A stretch of DNA of 64,000 nt, taken from contig OZ244786.1 of NCBI GenBank assembly GCA_965219675.1, forward strand, positions 3,674,597 to 3,738,596, given 5' to 3'. The DNA is from Candidatus Multivorans sp. (lineage in GTDB: Bacteria > Acidobacteriota > Thermoanaerobaculia > Multivoradales > Multivoraceae). This document shows, piece after piece, positions 16,530 through 63,215 of the stretch. The notes under the pieces were generated by a model. It was not told the DNA's origin, ran no database searches, and saw only the letters and a list, made by a program, of their open reading frames with translations. The stretch's first letter is position 1, and each line of letters opens with the position of its first letter. Made by a program: the position numbers and the translations under genes.

Positions 16530-16629
16530 GGAAGCGCTCGGGGGCTGGTGCCTCCTGCGGTCTTCAAAACCGTTGTCCGGGGCGTGATGCGTCTCCGGGG
16601 GTGGGTTCGATTCCCATGCGCTTCCGCCA
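16530..16629 (+). tRNA. selC: tRNA-Sec (selenocysteine, anticodon UCA)
   Basis: 8-bp acceptor stem GGAAGCGC/GCGCTTCC, 6-bp D-stem with 4-nt loop, anticodon loop CTTCAAA (UCA), long variable arm, T-arm GTGGGTTCGATTCCCAT, discriminator G + CCA. Confidence 0.8.
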
Positions 16630-16744
16630 CCGGCGACCGGGTCTTCACAAGTCGCTGGTCCGGGGCGTGATGCGTCTCCGGGGGTGGGTTCGATTCCCAT
16701 GCGCTTCCGCCACGGGCGACCGGGTCTTCACCAGTCGCTCGTCC
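16579..16744 (+). repeat. tandem duplication (2 x 83 bp) of tRNA-Sec 3' part (variable arm to CCA) plus a 30-nt downstream hairpin
   Basis: Unit 16579-16661 repeated at 16662-16744 with 2 substitutions; GTCC microhomology at junctions. Confidence 0.75.
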
Positions 16745-16750
16745 GTGCCG

Positions 16751-40310: not shown

Positions 40311-40542
40311 GGTGCCGGCCTTCGGCCGGCCGCATCCTGGCCGCCTGCGGCGGCAGCCGGCGGGGACGCCGGCGCACCCGGTAGAGATGCCGGCCGAAGG
40401 CCGGCCGTATCCTGGCCGCCTTCGGCGGCAGCCGGCGAGGACGCCGGCGCACCCGGTAGAGGTGCCGGCCTTCGGCCGGCCCGTATCCTGGCCGCCTTCG
40501 GCGGCAAGCCGGCGAGGACGCCGGCGCACCCAGAGAACGACC
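40311..40542 (+). repeat. tandem array of 3 x 75-bp REP units (contain GTAG tetranucleotide)
   Basis: tgccggccgaaggccggccgtatcctggccgccttcggcggcagccggcggggacgccggcgcacccggtagagg repeated. Confidence 0.8.
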
Positions 40543-40562
40543 CTTCCCGGGGCGCGAGTCTC

Positions 40563-41300
40563 TACTCCAAGTCACCGCTCGCAGCGACGTCCTGACGGCT
40601 GCAGAAGAGAAGCACGCCCCACCGACCATCGCTCGCTGGGTGCGCCGGCGTCCTCGCCGGCTGCCGCCACAGGCGGCCAAAACCAACGCGCCGGCCGAAG
40701 GCCGGCTCCGCTCACCACTCGCAGCGACGTCCTGACGGCTGCAGAAGAGAAGCACACCCCGCCGACTATCGCTCGCTGGGTGCGCCGGCGTCCTCGCCGG
40801 CTTGCCGCCGCAGGCGGCCAAGACCAACGCGCCGGCCGAAAGGCCGGCTCCGCTCACCGCTCGCAGCGACGTCCTGACGGCTGCAGAAGGAAAGCACGCC
40901 CCACCGACCATCGCTCGCTGGGTGCGCCGGCGTCCTCGCCGGCTGCCGCCGCAGGCGGCCAAAACCAACGCGCCGGCCGAAGGCCGGCTCCGCTCACCGC
41001 TCCCAGCGACGTCGTGACGGCTGCTGAAGAGAAACACGCCCCACCGACCATCGCTCGCTGGGTGCGCCGGCGTCCTCGCCGGCTGCCGCCGCAGGCGGCC
41101 AAAACCAACGCGCCGGCCGAAAGGCCGGCTCCGCTCACCGCTCCCCAGCGACGCCCTGACGGCTGCAGAAGAGAAGCACGCCCCACCGACCATCGCTCGC
41201 TGGGTGCGCCGGCGTCCCCGCCGGCTGCCGCCACTGGCGGCCAAAACCAACGCGCCGGCCGAAAGGCCGGCTCCACTACCTCCGCTCCCCCGCCGCCCCC
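40563..41300 (+). repeat. tandem array of ~5.5 x 141-bp units (REP core + ~95-bp spacer with two further hairpins)
   Basis: ctgggtgcgcc recurs at 40636, 40776, 40918, 41058, 41200. Confidence 0.85.
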
Positions 41301-46589: not shown

Positions 46590-47362
46590 GCCAGGCTACC
46601 CCACCCGGTACACCGACCTCCCCACCGGGTGCACAGACCTCCCCACCGGGTGCGCCGGCGTCCCCGCCGGGTGCACAGACCTCCCCACTGGGTGCACAGA
46701 CCTCCCCACTGGGTGCGCCGGCGTCCCCGCCGGCACCAGGCGCGCAGCCGCGAAGCGGCGCGCGCGAACCGTCGACACCCGCCCCCCTGATCCTCGCCTC
46801 CGCCTCCCCCCGCCGCCGCGAGCTCCTCGCCTCCCTCGACCTCGACTTCACCGTCCGCCCCGCCACCGTCGACGAGACCCCGAACCCCGGCGAACGGCCC
46901 CGCGACCTCGTGCGGCGCCTCGCCCGCGAGAAAGCCGAGGCCCAGGCCGAGGACGGCGAATGGGTGCTGGCCGCCGACACGATCGTGGTCACCGAAGGCG
47001 AAGTCCTGGGCAAGCCCTCCGACCGGACCGAAGCCCGCTCCATGCTTGGACGCCTCCAGGGCCGCTGGCACCTCGTCCTCACCGGCGTCGCCCTCCGGCC
47101 GCCAGACGGCGACACACTCCACGCCGTCGAGAGCACCCGGGTCCTGTTCGCCGAACTGACCCCTGAGCAGATCGACTGGTACGCCGAGACCGGCGAGCCT
47201 GACGACAAGGCCGGCGCCTACGCCGTCCAGGGCCTGGGCAGCCTCTTCATCCTCGAGATCGACGGCAACTACAGCAACGTCGTCGGCTTGCCGCTACCAA
47301 CGGTGCGGCAGTTGTTCGAGGGGGCCGGGAGTGACGTCAGGGCCTTTCGACGACGAAGGTAG
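46586..47362 (+). CDS. maf: Maf-like nucleoside triphosphate pyrophosphatase (start uncertain: GTG 46586 overlapping upstream stop, or near 46787)
   Basis: LILASASPRRRELL Maf N-terminal signature and C-terminal Maf motifs. Confidence 0.6.
   Translation: MSQATPPGTPTSPPGAQTSPPGAPASPPGAQTSPLGAQTSPLGAPASPPAPGAQPRSGAREPSTPAPLILASASPRRRELLASLDLDFTVRPATVDETPNPGERPRDLVRRLAREKAEAQAEDGEWVLAADTIVVTEGEVLGKPSDRTEARSMLGRLQGRWHLVLTGVALRPPDGDTLHAVESTRVLFAELTPEQIDWYAETGEPDDKAGAYAVQGLGSLFILEIDGNYSNVVGLPLPTVRQLFEGAGSDVRAFRRRR
46600..46740 (+). repeat. tandem 21-bp repeats (~7 copies) derived from REP 5' core
   Basis: cccac(c/t)gggtgc(a/g)c... units; period 21 = 7 codons. Confidence 0.7.
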
Positions 47363-56902: not shown

Positions 56903-59113
56903 GTGCGGGCGGTGGCGGGATGCACCCCGTGGCTGGTATCGTCGCTCGCTGCGATGGACGGTCTCGGAGCTTCGATCCTGACCCCGATGCCGGCCGGACG
57001 GCCGGCGCAGCCAGTGACCGGATATCGGCCCGAGGGAACGCGTCTCGACCGGATGATCGCCGCGGCGACGGGCAGGCTGCTCGAGGAGCAGCGGCCCGAC
57101 GGCCACTGGTGCGCCGAGCTCGAAGGCGACACGATCCTGGAGTCGGAGTACGTGCTCCTGCTCCACTTTCTGGGGCGCGGCGACGACCCTCGCGTCCGGG
57201 CCTGCTGCGAACGGCTGCGGAACACGCGGCTCGGGACGGGCGGCTGGTCGATTTATCCGGGCGGGCCGGCGGACGTCAGCGCTTCGGTCAAGGCGTACCT
57301 GTGCCTGAAGATCGCGGGAGACGACGTGGAGTCGCCGCCGATGGCCGCGGCGCGGCGCGCGATCGTGGAGGCCGGCGGCCTGGGCGCCTGCAACTCGTAC
57401 ACGAAGCTGCTGCTCGCGGTCTTCGGGTTGTGGCGCTGGCGCGACGCGCCGGCAGTGCCGCCGGAGATCGTGCTGTTGCCGCGGTGGTTCTACTTCAACC
57501 TGGATGAGATGTCGGCGTGGACGCGGGCGATTGTGGTGCCGCTGTCGGTGGTTTGGGCGTTGAAGCCGGGCGTGGAGGTGGAGGTGGGGTTGGAGGAGTT
57601 GCGGGGTGGCGGCCGGATGCCGGCGGGGACGCCGGCGCACCCAGTGGCGGACCGCGCCTGGTCGGTGGTCTTTGGTGGGGTGGACAGGTTGATCAAGTTC
57701 GTGGAGAGGGTCGGGCCGGTGCCGGGGTGGCGGCGGCGGGCTCTCGAGGAGGCGGAGGCCTGGATGACGCCTCGGCTGGGGGGAGACGATGGCCTGGGGG
57801 CGATCTTTCCGGCGATCGTGAACGCGGTCATGGCGCTCAGGGCCCTAGGGTACGAGGAGGATCATCCCCTGGTCCAGGGCCAACTGCGGGCGCTCGAGCG
57901 GTTCGAGATCGAGGACGCGAGCGGGAAAGCGGCGGAGATGAGGCTCCAGCCGTGTCTCTCCCCGGTCTGGGACACCGCGCTGTCGATGAACGCGCTCCTC
58001 GCGTCGGACGGGGATGGCGAGGCGGCGGCGCTGCAGCACGGCCTGCGGTGGCTGCTCGACCGCGAAGTGACCGCGCCGGGAGACTGGCAGCGAAAGAGCC
58101 TGCAGCAGGCGCCGGGCGGCTGGTGCTTCGAGTACGGCAACGACTTCTACCCGGACTGCGACGACACCGCCGAGGTCCTGGCCGTGCTGGCCGGGCTCAG
58201 GGGCGAGAACGAGGAGCTGGAGTGGCGGCGGCAGGCCGCCGTGTCCCGCGGCCTGCGCTGGCTGCGCGGCATGCAGAACCCGGACGGCGGCTGGGCCGCG
58301 TTCGACCGCCGCTGCGACAAGGAGATCCTGACCCGCATCCCGTTCGCGGATCACAACGCGATGATCGACCCGAGCACCGCGGACATCACGGCGCGCGCCG
58401 TCTGCGCCCTGCTCGCGCACGGCGGCGACCGCTCGGATGCCGCGGTCCGGCGCGGGGTGGAGTTCCTGCTGCGGATGCAGGAGAGCGACGGGAGCTGGTA
58501 CGGCCGCTGGGGCGCGAACTACGTCTACGGAACCTGGCTCGCGCTGGCCGCGCTGTCGCAGGTCGGCGGCGCCGGCGGCACCGGCGAGGCGGACGAGCGG
58601 CTCCCGCGCGCGATGCGGGCGGGGCGCGACTGGCTGCTCGGAGTCCAGAACGCGGACGGCGGATGGGGCGAGTCGCTGCACTCGTACGCGGATGCGAACG
58701 CGAAGGGGCAAGGCCGGAGCACGGCGTCCCAGACCGCCTGGGCGATGCTCGGGTTGATCGCGGCGGCCGGTCCGGGGGCCGCGGCGGGAGAGCGGAGCGC
58801 GGTCGGCGCGGCGCTCGAGCGGGCGGTCGGATTTCTGGGTGAGCGGCAGGGGCCGGATGGCGGCTGGGAGGATCGGGAGTGGACGGGGGTCGGCTTCCCG
58901 CGGGTGTTCTATCTTCGGTACCACGGCTATGGGGTCTACTTTCCGTTGGAGGCACTGGCGGGGTATCGGGAGTGGAGCCGGATGCCGGCGGGGACGCCGG
59001 CGCACCCAGTGGCGGAGCGGATGCCGGCGGGGACGCCGGCGCACCCGGTGGCGGAGCGGATGCCGGCGGGGACGCCGGCGCACCCAGTGGTGGGGCACAC
59101 GGTTCCTTCTTGA
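56903..59113 (+). CDS. shc: squalene-hopene cyclase (alternative starts at 56954 or 56987; carries in-frame REP insertions and a REP-encoded C-terminal tail)
   Basis: DCDDTAEV (DxDD) class-II terpene cyclase motif, multiple QW repeats, N-terminal alignment to SHC (LDR...EYVLLLHFL). Confidence 0.8.
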   Translation: MRAVAGCTPWLVSSLAAMDGLGASILTPMPAGRPAQPVTGYRPEGTRLDRMIAAATGRLLEEQRPDGHWCAELEGDTILESEYVLLLHFLGRGDDPRVRACCERLRNTRLGTGGWSIYPGGPADVSASVKAYLCLKIAGDDVESPPMAAARRAIVEAGGLGACNSYTKLLLAVFGLWRWRDAPAVPPEIVLLPRWFYFNLDEMSAWTRAIVVPLSVVWALKPGVEVEVGLEELRGGGRMPAGTPAHPVADRAWSVVFGGVDRLIKFVERVGPVPGWRRRALEEAEAWMTPRLGGDDGLGAIFPAIVNAVMALRALGYEEDHPLVQGQLRALERFEIEDASGKAAEMRLQPCLSPVWDTALSMNALLASDGDGEAAALQHGLRWLLDREVTAPGDWQRKSLQQAPGGWCFEYGNDFYPDCDDTAEVLAVLAGLRGENEELEWRRQAAVSRGLRWLRGMQNPDGGWAAFDRRCDKEILTRIPFADHNAMIDPSTADITARAVCALLAHGGDRSDAAVRRGVEFLLRMQESDGSWYGRWGANYVYGTWLALAALSQVGGAGGTGEADERLPRAMRAGRDWLLGVQNADGGWGESLHSYADANAKGQGRSTASQTAWAMLGLIAAAGPGAAAGERSAVGAALERAVGFLGERQGPDGGWEDREWTGVGFPRVFYLRYHGYGVYFPLEALAGYREWSRMPAGTPAHPVAERMPAGTPAHPVAERMPAGTPAHPVVGHTVPS
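57609..57647 (-). repeat. REP element inserted in-frame within shc
   Basis: ggcggccggatgccggcggggacgccggcgcacccagtg encoding GGRMPAGTPAHPV. Confidence 0.75.
58978..59094 (-). repeat. 3 tandem 39-bp REP units forming the 3' end of the shc ORF
   Basis: ggatgccggcggggacgccggcgcacccagtggcggagc x3, encoding RMPAGTPAHPVAE x3. Confidence 0.8.
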
Positions 59114-60121
59114 GTGGATATGAGAACGCCGCTTCATCTTGTGGTCGACAACCTGGTGCTCCAGGCGCGGAACGCGCTGCGGGGCAGGAAGAGGTACCCG
59201 TTCGTGCTGATGCTCGAACCGCTGTACACGTGCAACCTGGCCTGCATCGGCTGCTCCGTGGAGCGGCATACCGGGAAGCTCAAGGACCGGATGGCGGTGG
59301 CGGACTGTCTCGACGCGGTCGAGGTCACCGAGGCGCCCGTCGTCTCCATCTGCGGCGGCGAGCCGACGATCTACCCCGAGCTTCCGGAGCTCGTCGCGGG
59401 CATCATCGCCCGGCGCCGGCACATCTACCTCTGCACGAACGCCCTGCTGCTCGACACGAAGGTCTTCGGCCGCGTGCCCCCGCACCGCCGCCTGACGCTG
59501 AACGTCCACCTCGACGGGATGCGCGAAACCCACGACTATGTCTGCGCGCGCGAGGGCGTGTTCGACAAGGCGGTCGAGATGATCCGGGCCGCGAAGGAGC
59601 TCGGCTACCGCGTGAGCACGAACACGACCGTGTTCAAGGAGACGCGGATCGAGGAGGTCGAGGAGCTCTGCGGCTTCCTGCGCGATCTGGACGTCGACGG
59701 GATGCTCATCTCGCCCGGCTACCAGTACGAGTCGGTCGACCGGGACATCTTCCTCACCCGGCAGGACTCGCAGGACAAGTTCCTGCGCATCCTCGAGATC
59801 GCCGACGAGTACAAGCTGACTTCGACGCCCATGTACCTCGAGTTCGCCGCCGGAATCCGGGACTACTCCTGCTCTCCCTGGAGCACGGTGACCAGGACGC
59901 CGCTCGGCTGGAAGGGGCCGTGCTACCTCATCGCCAAGCGCTACTACCCGACCTTCGAGGAGTTCTGGGACGAGACGGACTGGGACTACTGGGAATCCCG
60001 CGAGGATCCGCTGTGCGCGAACTGCGCGATGCACTCGGGCTTCGAGGCCTCCGCGGTGCGCGAGGCGAACCGGAACCCGCGGGACCTCGCGCGGCTCGCG
60101 GCCTGGCAACTCTCGGGTTGA
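59114..60121 (+). CDS. hpnH: hopanoid biosynthesis radical SAM protein HpnH (adenosylhopane synthase)
   Basis: CNLACIGC radical-SAM cluster motif; HpnH family length; follows shc. Confidence 0.85.
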   Translation: MDMRTPLHLVVDNLVLQARNALRGRKRYPFVLMLEPLYTCNLACIGCSVERHTGKLKDRMAVADCLDAVEVTEAPVVSICGGEPTIYPELPELVAGIIARRRHIYLCTNALLLDTKVFGRVPPHRRLTLNVHLDGMRETHDYVCAREGVFDKAVEMIRAAKELGYRVSTNTTVFKETRIEEVEELCGFLRDLDVDGMLISPGYQYESVDRDIFLTRQDSQDKFLRILEIADEYKLTSTPMYLEFAAGIRDYSCSPWSTVTRTPLGWKGPCYLIAKRYYPTFEEFWDETDWDYWESREDPLCANCAMHSGFEASAVREANRNPRDLARLAAWQLSG

Positions 60122-60155
60122 CCCGAGCCCGCGGCTCGCGGCCGCCGGAAGCGAC

Positions 60156-61154
60156 GTGACCGCCCTGGTCACCGGCGGCACGGGCTTCGTCGGCGCCCAC
60201 GTCGTCCGCGCGCTGCTGGAGCGCGGCGCGGGCCCGGTTCGCTGCCTGGTGCGCCCCGCCAGCGACCGCTCGAACCTCGAAGGCCTCGACGTGGACCTGG
60301 CGCGGGGCGACCTCCGCGATCCGGAGAGTCTCGCGGCGGCCTGCCGGGGCTGCGAGGAGGTCTACCACTGCGCGGCGGACTACCGGCTCTTCGCCCGCGA
60401 CCCCTCCGGGATCCACGCCTCGAACACGGGCGGGACCCGCAATCTGCTGGCGGCCGCCCGGGGCGCCGGGGTTCGGCGGATCGTCTACACGAGTTCCGTC
60501 GCGGCGCTCGGGCTGGAACCGGGCGGAGAGCCGGCCGACGAGACGACCCCGGTCGATCCAGCGAAGATCGTCGGCCACTACAAGCGGAGCAAGTACGACG
60601 CGGAGCGGGTGGCCGAGCAGGCCGCCGCGGACGGCGCGCCGGTGGTTATCGTGAACCCGTCGACGCCGGTCGGCGAACTGGACGTGAAACCGACGCCGAC
60701 CGGGCGGATCATCGTGGACTTCCTGAACGGCCGGATGCCGGCCTGGGTCGATACGGGCCTGAACGTCGTCGACGTCCGCGACGTGGCGCAGGGCCATCTC
60801 CTGGCGGCGGAGCGGGGTCGCGTGGGCGAGAAGTACATCCTGGGCAACCGCAACGTGACGCTCCGCGAGCTGCTCCAGTTGCTGGCGGAGATCACCGGCC
60901 GGCGGGCGCCGCGGCTGCGCCTGCCGCACTGGCTCCCGATTGCCGTCGCGGCCGTCGACACGGGCCGGGCCCGGTGGTTCGGCGGCGAGCCCCGCGTACC
61001 GCTCGAGAGCGCCCGGATGGCGCGGAAGAAGATGTTCTTCGACGCCGGCAAGGCGGTGCGGGAGCTGGGGTTGCCGCAGAGCCCGGTGGAGGAGGCGCTG
61101 CGGCGGGCGGTGGGGTGGTTTGAGGGGAATGGGTATGTGGCCGCTTCGCGTTGA
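60156..61154 (+). CDS. hpnA: hopanoid-associated sugar epimerase HpnA (NAD-dependent epimerase/dehydratase)
   Basis: GTG start; VTGGTGFVGAHV Rossmann motif; YxxxK SDR catalytic region. Confidence 0.75.
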   Translation: MTALVTGGTGFVGAHVVRALLERGAGPVRCLVRPASDRSNLEGLDVDLARGDLRDPESLAAACRGCEEVYHCAADYRLFARDPSGIHASNTGGTRNLLAAARGAGVRRIVYTSSVAALGLEPGGEPADETTPVDPAKIVGHYKRSKYDAERVAEQAAADGAPVVIVNPSTPVGELDVKPTPTGRIIVDFLNGRMPAWVDTGLNVVDVRDVAQGHLLAAERGRVGEKYILGNRNVTLRELLQLLAEITGRRAPRLRLPHWLPIAVAAVDTGRARWFGGEPRVPLESARMARKKMFFDAGKAVRELGLPQSPVEEALRRAVGWFEGNGYVAASR

Positions 61155-61167
61155 CGCACCGGGTCCG

Positions 61168-61337
61168 CCACTGGGTGCGCCGGCCTTCTGGCCGGCATCC
61201 GGACTGGGTGCGCCGGCGTCCCCGCCGGCTGCCGCCGAAGGCGGCCAGAAAGACGGGCCGACCGAAGGTCGGCATCCGCTTCAATTCCGGCGCACCTCCC
61301 CCGGAAGCCGGCGGGGACGCCGGCGCACCCAGTGGCG
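61168..61337 (+). repeat. composite MITE-like REP element
   Basis: Forward REP cores at 61168 and 61204, inverted REP at 61300-61337. Confidence 0.8.
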
Positions 61338-61343
61338 GACCCC

Positions 61344-62120
61344 GTGACGACGGTCTATCTGGCGGCGATGCGGTTCGAGGTCGGGGCGCTGATGCGCCGC
61401 GTGGAGGGTGCGCGGAAAGCCCGGGACACGGGGCTCGGGAGAACGGTGTCGGGCTCCATCGGAGGCCGGCCGGTGCTGGTCGCCGTGTCGGGAGTCGGAG
61501 CGCGGGCGGCCCGAACGGCCGCCGAGGCCTGCGTGGACCTCGCCCGCCAGGGTCGGTGCAGCCGCGTCGTCTGGCTCGGCATTGCCGGCGCGCTGTCGCC
61601 AGGGCTGCGAGTGGGCGACCTGGTCGTCGCCACGAGCGTCACGGCCGCGGAAGAGCGACACTGGGTGCGCCGGCGTCCCCGCCGGCATCCGGACGCCGCC
61701 CCACAACCGATCGCCCTGGACCGGGATCTCGCCACCTCCGCAGTCTCCGCCGGCTGCGCCGAAGCAGTCGTCGTCTCGACGTCGAGGCCCGTCGTCACCC
61801 CGGACCAGCGCCAGCGCCTATGGCAACAGGCCGGCTCGCCCGACCGTGCCGCGGTCGACATGGAGAGCTATGAAGCCGCCCGAGTCTTCCACGCCGCCGG
61901 CCTGCCGTTCGCCGTCGTCCGTGCGGTCAGCGACACCGCGGAGGACGACCTGCCCATGGCCCTCACGGACGCGGTGACGGCTGAAGGTGGAATCTCGACC
62001 CCGAGGCTCGCCTTCGCCCTGCTGCGGCGGCCGCGGGCCGCGCTTCCGCTGGCGGCGGTTCGATTTCTGGCGGCCCGTTCCGCCAGGGTCCTGGCCGGCG
62101 CCGCGGCGGCGCTCGCCTGA
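61344..62120 (+). CDS. hpnG: hopanoid-associated phosphorylase HpnG (PNP/MTA-nucleosidase family), with in-frame REP insertion
   Basis: GTG start VTTVYLAAMRFEV; nucleoside phosphorylase fold motifs; REP at 61659-61692 in frame. Confidence 0.7.
   Translation: MTTVYLAAMRFEVGALMRRVEGARKARDTGLGRTVSGSIGGRPVLVAVSGVGARAARTAAEACVDLARQGRCSRVVWLGIAGALSPGLRVGDLVVATSVTAAEERHWVRRRPRRHPDAAPQPIALDRDLATSAVSAGCAEAVVVSTSRPVVTPDQRQRLWQQAGSPDRAAVDMESYEAARVFHAAGLPFAVVRAVSDTAEDDLPMALTDAVTAEGGISTPRLAFALLRRPRAALPLAAVRFLAARSARVLAGAAAALA
61659..61692 (+). repeat. REP element inserted in-frame within hpnG
   Basis: cactgggtgcgccggcgtccccgccggcatccgg encoding HWVRRRPRRHP. Confidence 0.75.
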
Positions 62121-62159: not shown

Positions 62160-63215
62160 ATGCGCAAACTCGAAGCGAGAGCCACCGGCGACCTGGGGAT
62201 GTTCTTCCGGGCCCTGGAGGACGAGGAGGCGGCCGACTACTGGTCGCGGCAGTGCACCCGCGCGGACTACGCCCTGCCGAAGGTGGGCGTCGACTGCTCC
62301 TGGAACTACGGACCCTGCCTGCGCGCCGCCCGCGGCGACTGGCCGGCGGTGCGCGAAGCGCTCGACCACTACTGGACGCACGGCGCCGGCAACGAGTTCA
62401 ACTCGCCGCTCTACGGCGGCCGCGTCTACGTGGCCGCCGTCCTGTGCGCGCTCCGCGGGGGCGGTCAGGCGGCGTGGGCATTCGTTCACCGCTGGACCGG
62501 TTTCCTGGCGCTGCAGGCGACCCTCGCTCCACCCCCGCCACGGCGCGAGACGTTCCTCTGGGCCGGTGAGACGAAGCCTCTGCGCTACGTGCGCACCGGC
62601 CACGGCGTCGCGATTCCGCCCACCGGGCTGCGGACGAACGGCGACGCCCTCTGCAATACGATGATCGAACCGGTCCTGGCCCACGTCCTCGGAATCGGGC
62701 ACGAGATGCGCCAGCCCCGGCACTGGCGCAACTGGCGGGCGCCGCGAGACAAGGAGGAGTGGGCCCGGCGGGGCTCGCCACCCACTCCGTTCGCATACCT
62801 CGAGGCGGTCCGGCAAGCCGAGGCGCGATCCGGCGCCCGGATCCGGGAGCAGCCGTTCATGGCGTTCTGCGCGCGGGCGGTCCGGGGAGACATGGAAGCG
62901 TGGGGCGAGCTCGGCCGCGCGGTTGAGCGCGCCGGCGTGCCCCTGCCGCGGGGCATCGCCCGGTTCGTCATCGAGCGCCGCGCGGACGCCGTGGCCACCT
63001 TCTGGGAGGGCAGGTCGCCGACCCGCCAGAAACCGTCCGTCGCGGCCGGAGCGATCGTCGGCAACCGCCGCTACATCCTGATCCCGGCCACGTGGCAGAT
63101 CCCGAGCACCCAGACGAGATCCCGAATCACCGACACGGAGGTCCGCGCGCAGGCGGACGTGGAGGACACGATGCCGCGGCTGGAGGACCCCGCGGGGACG
63201 TTCGAACTCACCTAG
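62160..63215 (+). CDS. hypothetical protein
   Basis: 351-aa ORF with high GC3 and protein-like composition; antisense ORF 61818..63617 is Arg-rich artefact. Confidence 0.4.
   Translation: MRKLEARATGDLGMFFRALEDEEAADYWSRQCTRADYALPKVGVDCSWNYGPCLRAARGDWPAVREALDHYWTHGAGNEFNSPLYGGRVYVAAVLCALRGGGQAAWAFVHRWTGFLALQATLAPPPPRRETFLWAGETKPLRYVRTGHGVAIPPTGLRTNGDALCNTMIEPVLAHVLGIGHEMRQPRHWRNWRAPRDKEEWARRGSPPTPFAYLEAVRQAEARSGARIREQPFMAFCARAVRGDMEAWGELGRAVERAGVPLPRGIARFVIERRADAVATFWEGRSPTRQKPSVAAGAIVGNRRYILIPATWQIPSTQTRSRITDTEVRAQADVEDTMPRLEDPAGTFELT

Follow-up and report, generated by a model that had tools for sequence, protein, structure and literature searches.

A probable REP-derived, in-frame loop insertion tolerated in the hopanoid gene hpnG of an acidobacterium

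The HpnG-like protein encoded in the window (the whole stretch of Candidatus Multivorans sp. DNA analysed, 64 kb in length) contains an additional loop that very probably arose by the in-frame insertion of a REP sequence at a site where the enzyme tolerates extra length. The segment belongs to the REP family of the window, keeps the reading frame and is absent from the outgroups. It falls in a loop; the catalytic residues are retained and the gene is under purifying selection.

The hopanoid cluster, the REP family and the RAYT-like gene

The hpnG gene is the last member of a contiguous cluster with the order shc-hpnH-hpnA-hpnG (positions 56903-62120), and the synteny of this cluster is also found in relatives. 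The features of the window are the following:

34930-35556, minus strand: RAYT-like (REP-associated tyrosine transposase) gene, assigned by PF01797, NF047646 and motifs
56903-59113, plus strand: shc, squalene-hopene cyclase, aligned to the SQHop_cyclase neighbours in the relatives L082, L084 and L087
59114-60121, plus strand: hpnH, adenosyl-hopene transferase, radical SAM (TIGR03470, 383 bits, above the cut-off of 225)
60156-61154, plus strand: hpnA, hopanoid-associated sugar epimerase (TIGR03466, 477 bits, above the cut-off of 368)
61157-61346, unstranded: composite (BIME-like) REP element, recognised by inverted arms, three REP copies and its fold
61344-62120, plus strand: coding sequence of the HpnG-like nucleoside phosphorylase/nucleosidase, 258 aa plus stop (PF01048, TIGR03468)
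61656-61703, plus strand: 48-nt insert (16 codons, residues 105-120) by comparison with empty-site orthologues, placed by nucleotide alignment

The open reading frame that begins at 61332 or 61344 and ends at 62120 encodes a PNP_UDP_1 protein (PF01048, E 7.5e-26). Among the NCBIfam families it scores best with HpnG (TIGR03468, E 2.2e-31), at 109.1 bits, below the cut-off of 187.1 bits. The step assigned to the HpnG family leads from adenosylhopane to ribosylhopane. A preliminary description of this DNA had presented the frame as the HpnG phosphorylase. The intact frame, the best family and the hopanoid cluster agree with that name, whereas the score does not reach the TIGR03468 cut-off. The public protein P0001 (258 aa) is 100% identical to the product and places the start at GTG 61344; the alternative start, GTG 61332, lies inside the minus-strand copy of the upstream REP. 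Both hpnA and hpnG were missed by a crude gene filter based on GC3.

In Acidobacteria, a cluster formed by hpnA, hpnG and an unknown gene is on record (PMC5462960). Directly 3' of hpnG, the window has an ORF of 351 aa (62160-63215, plus strand) with no Pfam or NCBIfam match. The ORF is kept in position in L081, L082, L084, L085 and L087 (351-362 aa) and may be the unknown gene 'ug1' described next to hpnA-hpnG (PMC5462960). In L081 and L007, a gene for an AAA_15/AAA_21 ATPase is inserted between hpnG and this conserved ORF. The position of hpnA also varies: the window, L083 and L086 have it between hpnH and hpnG; L081, L082, L084 and L087 do not.

The REP core within hpnG (61659-61692, plus strand) is a 34-nt sequence, CACTGGGTGCGCCGGCGTCCCCGCCGGCATCCGG. 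With three or fewer mismatches allowed, this 34-mer matches 18 times in the 64 kb of the window, where 100 shuffles predict 0.00, and a 23-nt core, GGTGCGCCGGCGTCCCCGCCGGC, matches 30 times where 0.03 would be expected. Two of the copies, at 57613-57646 and 58978-59011, show no mismatch to the core in hpnG. The unit measures 33-34 nt, with a perfect 7-bp stem (GCCGGCG/CGCCGGC) and a 4-nt loop (TCCC). It occurs as singlets, as inverted dimers (49195/49302, 51531/51638 and 61207/61307) and as tandem arrays with periods of 39, 69, 75 and 142 nt, among them those at 37533-37797 and 40313-41274. The hairpin unit, the excess of copies and the dimers and arrays therefore define a genuine REP-type family. 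In all copies the stem is preceded in the context CACTGG-GTGC-GCCGGCG, and the tetranucleotide GTAG was not found 5' of the stem in any copy of the window, all of which have GTGC instead. All six frames of the REP are free of stop codons. The coding status of the copies was checked for those located in shc and hpnG.

Large tandem arrays of composite REP units are placed at 40313-41274 and 46599-46733, with a 75-nt period in 2.9 copies, a 142-nt period in 5 copies and periods of 21/63 nt. These arrays give long spurious ORFs on both strands in a sequence of 70% GC. An Rfam search found no family over the REP, and its matches are confined to tRNA-Ala and tRNA-Sec. The tRNA-Sec gene (16530-16629) is followed by an 83-nt tandem duplication of its 3' part (16575-16745, 2.1 copies, 96% identity), which may be the remnant attachment site of an integrated element.

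The composite element fills the spacer between hpnA and hpnG and extends to the hpnG start codon. It contains three REP copies (61166-61204 and 61199-61237 on the plus strand, 61301-61334 on the minus strand) and inverted 60-nt arms (61157-61216 and 61287-61346) with 83% complementarity. This confirms the composite REP that had been described as abutting the 5' end of hpnG with position 61332 inside it. The RNA fold of the element reaches -151 kcal/mol (z = -10.1). The complementarity between the intragenic REP (61656-61692) and the minus-strand REP located at the start codon (61301-61337) reaches 95%. A long-range pairing in the mRNA, by which the intragenic REP would occlude the ribosome-binding site of hpnG, was considered and rejected; in the minimum-free-energy fold of 61155-61710 the composite element is paired with itself and the intragenic REP is unpaired with it.

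A REP is located directly 5' of hpnG even in the group of about 50% identity, which is itself without the loop insert. The gene calls of several hpnG orthologues (P0004, P0006, P0008, P0019 and P0044) begin inside the upstream REP, and the called proteins have REP-derived N-terminal extensions such as MPARRPAHPV... or LGAPASPPAS.... Position 2965 in L002/L004/L005/L067 belongs to the same set of observations.

The RAYT-like gene of the window resembles the genes of transposases associated with REP sequences. Its product matches PF01797 (Y1_Tnp) with 32.1 bits, above the cut-off of 23, and NF047646 (REP_Tyr_transpos) with E 8e-22 and 77.7 bits, just below the cut-off of 80. The protein contains the HUH motif HVHVL and the tyrosine motif YIWLNPV. 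One REP lies at about 34868-34902, 29 nt past the stop codon, and inverted REPs (37596-37767) are located on the other flank, past an IS110-family transposase gene (35717-37144, minus strand; NF033542, 179 bits). Both genes and a REP array with a 69-nt period (37533-37797) are held in a 3-kb unit (34732-37937) bounded by 186-nt direct repeats of 96% identity. This unit looks like a REPtron, an arrangement known for REP/RAYT systems (PMC3733652), invaded by an IS110 element.

Insertions in hpnG and shc among relatives

The 16 codons of the insert (residues 105-120) encode RHWVRRRPRRHPDAAP, in which 6 of the 16 residues are Arg. Position 61659 is in frame with GTG 61344 (offset of 315 nt), and 61659-61691 is translated as HWVRRRPRRHP. 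The reading of the forward core as this in-frame peptide, proposed at the outset, is thus borne out by the frame and by the exact copies elsewhere; the length given with it, about 12 residues, is too short in comparison with the empty-site orthologues. The REP core of 33-34 nt forms the central part of the insert only, and flanks of 3 and 12 nt, CGA and GACGCCGCCCCA, extend beyond it. The insert (48 nt) is longer than the core, and, judged on the nucleotides, the extra 15 nt count against an explanation by REP insertion. An extended REP tail, suggested by the resemblance of the 3' flank CGCCGCCCCACAAC to the flank of the shc copy, was tried and rejected. The shc flank belongs to the gene itself and encodes EELRGG, which is conserved among relatives; AAACCG/CAACCG belongs to hpnG itself according to the DNA alignment. 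The likeness of both flanks is probably due to chance in GC-rich DNA. No clear target-site signature was found around the insert in the alignment of eight loci and of REP flanks.

The comparison covers 39 homologues, in which the proteins at 63-80% identity were sorted by insert state. The relatives are mostly MAGs, and the closest named are Thermoanaerobaculia/Acidobacteria MAGs. In the 63-80% range the insert is present at the site in P0002-P0007, P0009, P0011, P0012 and P0014. The site is empty in P0008 and P0010, which belong to the insert-bearing clade, and in the sister group (P0013, P0015 and P0016). The insert is also absent from the group of about 50% identity (P0017-P0020), from P0021-P0024 and from all remoter homologues. 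The canonical HpnGs of Rhodopseudomonas, Bradyrhizobium, Methylocystis, Brocadia and Nitrosomonas have at most four (0-4) extra residues at the site. A tight 3-residue turn takes the place of the insert in the outgroup orthologues, in the canonical HpnGs and in P0008/P0010. The alignment with HpnG orthologues proposed as a check on the REP origin accordingly finds the segment missing outside the clade, in canonical HpnGs and in P0008/P0010; it does not refute the REP origin, which is supported.

At the DNA level, eight orthologous loci were aligned, of which six are filled (window, L081, L083, L084, L085 and L087) and two are empty (L082, with GCG GAC GAC AAA CCG, and L086, with CCG GAA GGA CGA TCG). 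The insert lengths at these loci are 0, 0, 18, 36, 48 (window), 87, 99 and 123 nt. Every length is divisible by three, and the inserted material is REP-like sequence of each genome's own type. Some relatives have dimeric inserts, for example HCVRPPLRGLR-HWVRRPSGRHP. An identical insert is present in P0040, from an independent JGI assembly, whose protein differs elsewhere. Homologous inserts occur at the same site in at least 10 other assemblies from different projects, with the frame always kept.

Rough NJ trees built from the whole protein and from its N- and C-terminal parts group the insert-bearing proteins in one clade with empty outgroups, and the window together with P0007 forms the first branch of this clade. 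These sequences suggest that hpnG probably received its original insertion a single time, at the base of the clade. This single insertion would have been followed by in-place duplication and partial deletion. The intragenic REP would then have evolved as intergenic REP clusters do, producing dimers by duplication, partial deletions and maybe loss, and in intact genes only the in-frame variants would have persisted.

The proteins P0008 and P0010, empty and of ancestral length, are nested within the filled clade. A single deletion that would turn a filled allele into the empty allele of P0008 (GAC GAC AAA) was considered and rejected; no such path leads to the P0008 sequence from any of the filled alleles compared. 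A single origin therefore requires that these two lost the insert cleanly or had the allele replaced. To judge from the alleles, P0008 and P0010 may result from clean excision, from replacement by an empty allele through recombination or from recurrent insertion.

The shc gene carries REP-derived peptides as well, which makes hpnG a second hopanoid gene of this kind, as had been announced. It bears an internal REP (57613-57646) in the reverse orientation, read as RMPAGTPAHPV. At its 3' end, three REP units of 39 nt (58974-59090) are translated as a C-terminal tail of about 45 residues, which ends at TGA 59111-59113 and abuts the start of hpnH. In relatives, both of these shc sites have other inserts of REP origin, and L084 is without the tail.

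A different outcome is found in the Thermoanaerobaculia MAG L007 (OZ246956.1, 3300-3570), in which hpnG is short of 426 nt in comparison with L081 (3367-3792), the flanks being 96% identical. The deletion starts in the intragenic REP, ends at a GC-rich motif of similar sequence close to the 3' end and puts the gene out of frame. The L007 gene is a pseudogene that has lost the catalytic half. Intragenic REPs thus serve as break and recombination points as well.

The HpnG protein and the competing explanations

An AlphaFold2 model of HpnG, run on a 39-sequence alignment, has a mean pLDDT of 92.9 and a pTM of 0.90. The sole blocks of low confidence are residues 101-110 (pLDDT 67) and 111-120 (pLDDT 60). 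Residues 102-121 are coil by DSSP and are placed between the strands 93-101 and 122-123, and the structural modelling suggested earlier for the insert thus returns a low-confidence coil between two conserved strands. The insert-less P0008 is modelled in the same fold, and its turn of 5 residues has a pLDDT of at least 94. The REP-derived N-terminal extension of P0008 has a low pLDDT (57-59), and in the light of the model it is probably an over-called start.

The fold is that of the MTA/SAH nucleosidases (3dp9; E 3.5e-16 by Foldseek and E 1e-38 in a PDB profile search), and the top Foldseek matches are MTANs with a probability of 1.00. The protein combines this MTAN-type fold with the catalytic Glu, the Met-Glu ribose-binding pair and the Ser-Asp acid. 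In the alignment, the catalytic columns E174, R193 and D197 show no variation, and conservation extends to M173 and S196. MTANs hold a loop of 14-16 residues (DVTAFGYE.GQ..G.P) exactly at the insert site in the profile alignment, and the REP has therefore landed in the loop of the fold that tolerates length variation most. In the E. coli MTAN structures this loop contributes to the active site of the neighbouring subunit. A literature search on the role of the MTAN loop (Phe105/Tyr107) found nothing usable.

Outside the insert, dN/dS is 0.19-0.37 for all pairs by the Nei-Gojobori method, in filled and empty genes alike, and reaches 0.23-0.41 when the 5' and 3' parts of hpnG are taken separately. 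The GC3 of hpnG is 0.85, with 0.88 and 0.84 on the two sides of the insert. Because the catalytic residues are kept, dN/dS is low and the GC3 signature is found on both sides, these data argue that hpnG remains functional, with both halves under purifying selection. The Arg/Pro/His-rich loop of 16 residues is probably disordered, judging by the model. Most likely the REP-derived loop is carried along as a passenger, neutral or slightly deleterious; its neutrality is suggested solely by the variability and the predicted disorder of the peptide.

The RAYT-like gene is flanked by inverted REPs, and mobilisation by RAYT is therefore the most likely origin of the hpnG insertion. The RAYT-like protein is, by its motifs and flanks, the probable mobilising enzyme of the REP family. 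The NF047646 score under the cut-off and the presence of GTGC in place of the usual GTAG are points that count against such a mobilisation. In this mechanism, a REP copy of the genome itself, tied to a RAYT-type transposase, would have become inserted in the hpnG coding sequence. Its survival would have depended on an added length that is a multiple of three and on a REP free of stops in all six frames. The third factor would be the site, a surface turn between two beta-strands that is length-tolerant across the PNP/MTAN superfamily.

A passive passenger is not the sole reading of these data. Intragenic REPs might instead be active, RAYT-driven hot spots of in-frame length polymorphism, excised and re-inserted seamlessly as single strands in the manner of IS200/IS605. 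This is unlikely, and it would fit the range of 0 to 41 REP-derived codons at the HpnG loop and at the two Shc sites of close relatives, and the apparently clean empty allele nested among filled ones. Less likely still, the loop may have been exapted, with a basic, Arg-rich segment that aids the docking of HpnG to the membrane or the handling of hopane, kept by selection and set where the MTAN loop lines the 5'-substituent pocket across the dimer. The insert persists across a clade in which dS reaches about 0.5, does not vary between two strains whose proteins differ elsewhere, occupies the position of the MTAN loop DVTAFGYE.GQ and contains 6 Arg among its 16 residues. Exaptation is nevertheless hard to reconcile with 0 to 41 extra codons of very different sequence among close relatives, two of which have no insert, and with a predicted disorder of the segment. 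Moreover, shc reads the same REP in another frame (RMPAGTPAHPV), a sign of indifference to what the REP encodes.

The remaining explanations deny the insert a place in a working gene. According to one of them, hpnG is a young pseudogene, open only through the stop-free REP and 70% GC. The loss of hpnG in the relative L007 by a deletion anchored in the intragenic REP goes in this direction, as do an HpnG HMM score under the cut-off and a GC3 of 0.85 against 0.91-0.94 in the neighbours, a somewhat weaker coding signature. Decay is made very improbable by the dN/dS on both sides of the insert, equal to that of the insert-free orthologues, by the intact catalytic residues and by the confident fold prediction. 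Insert-free relatives of the lineage also score below the HMM cut-off, so the low score reflects divergence of the lineage and not decay. It is hardly credible at all that the insert is an assembly or consensus artefact, in which a REP read was mis-joined into a metagenome-assembled gene. Most relatives are indeed MAGs and REPs are classic sources of mis-assembly, but the independent contig P0040 has the identical insert, and the homologous inserts of the other assemblies preserve the frame every time.

Significance and comparison with known systems

The in-frame, tolerated insertion of a REP in hpnG documents the absorption of a selfish hairpin repeat into an enzyme by means of empty and filled sites, graded lengths, a structural model and selection. 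To these the same case adds a candidate transposase in the window and a relative with a gene-destroying deletion seeded by the repeat. It is a natural experiment on the loop tolerance of the MTAN fold and reveals no new kind of system. In practical terms, gene calls and HMM scores are distorted by N-terminal extensions and inserts of REP origin, and surveys of hopanoid genes in Acidobacteriota can be misled. If the hot-spot reading were true, excision and re-insertion would operate inside genes of an essential pathway, and an Arg-rich loop at the position of the MTAN substrate pocket could be raw material for a new membrane or hopanoid interaction.

Within the HpnG/MTAN family, the window protein has the usual MTAN fold, the catalytic Glu/Asp/Arg and the shc-hpnH-hpnA-hpnG context. 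It differs from the family in scoring below the equivalog cut-offs of both HpnG and MTAN, and its REP-derived loop sits where MTANs have, and HpnGs lack, a loop of 14-16 residues.

The REP/RAYT (REPIN) systems of Escherichia and Pseudomonas resemble the arrangement of the window in a gene, here a candidate one, for a Y1 HUH transposase placed between inverted REPs and in the many REP singlets, dimers and arrays scattered between genes. On the other hand, the RAYT-like protein is here below the NCBIfam cut-off, and an IS110 element separates the RAYT gene from one of the REP flanks.

The Rickettsia palindromic elements (RPEs; Ogata et al. 2000) are, in the passages of Delihas 2011 (PMC3184786) and of PMC3733652 that cite them, inserted in frame in genes that are still functional. 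As far as these passages describe them, they are likewise selfish palindromes read in frame, located at sites common to related species and thought to be on the protein surface. The RPE-1, of about 105-146 bp in the corresponding part of PMC3184786, is unrelated in sequence, whereas the unit of the window has 33-34 nt, the insert has 48 nt and a candidate transposase is nearby.

The closest parallel is offered by the REP families tagged with GTAG/CGTC (Di Nocera et al. 2013, PMC3733652), which are also short GC-rich hairpins of mostly intergenic location. They too form inverted dimers and clusters, are associated with RAYT, have copies at the N- and C-termini of ORFs and include a minority of copies wholly inside ORFs of known proteins. 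Intragenic REPs are reported there in frame in functional genes, as singles or dimers that add about 10-30 residues, presumed to be in loops or linkers (PMC3733652). The window REP differs in having GTGC and not GTAG before the stem, and CGTC inside the stem/loop and not as an end tag. The host is acidobacterial (Thermoanaerobaculia-like), and the targets are hopanoid genes in place of the replication and repair genes stressed in PMC3733652. The phenomenon is already known (PMC3733652, PMC3184786); what is new is the host lineage, the hopanoid targets and the clear comparative support.
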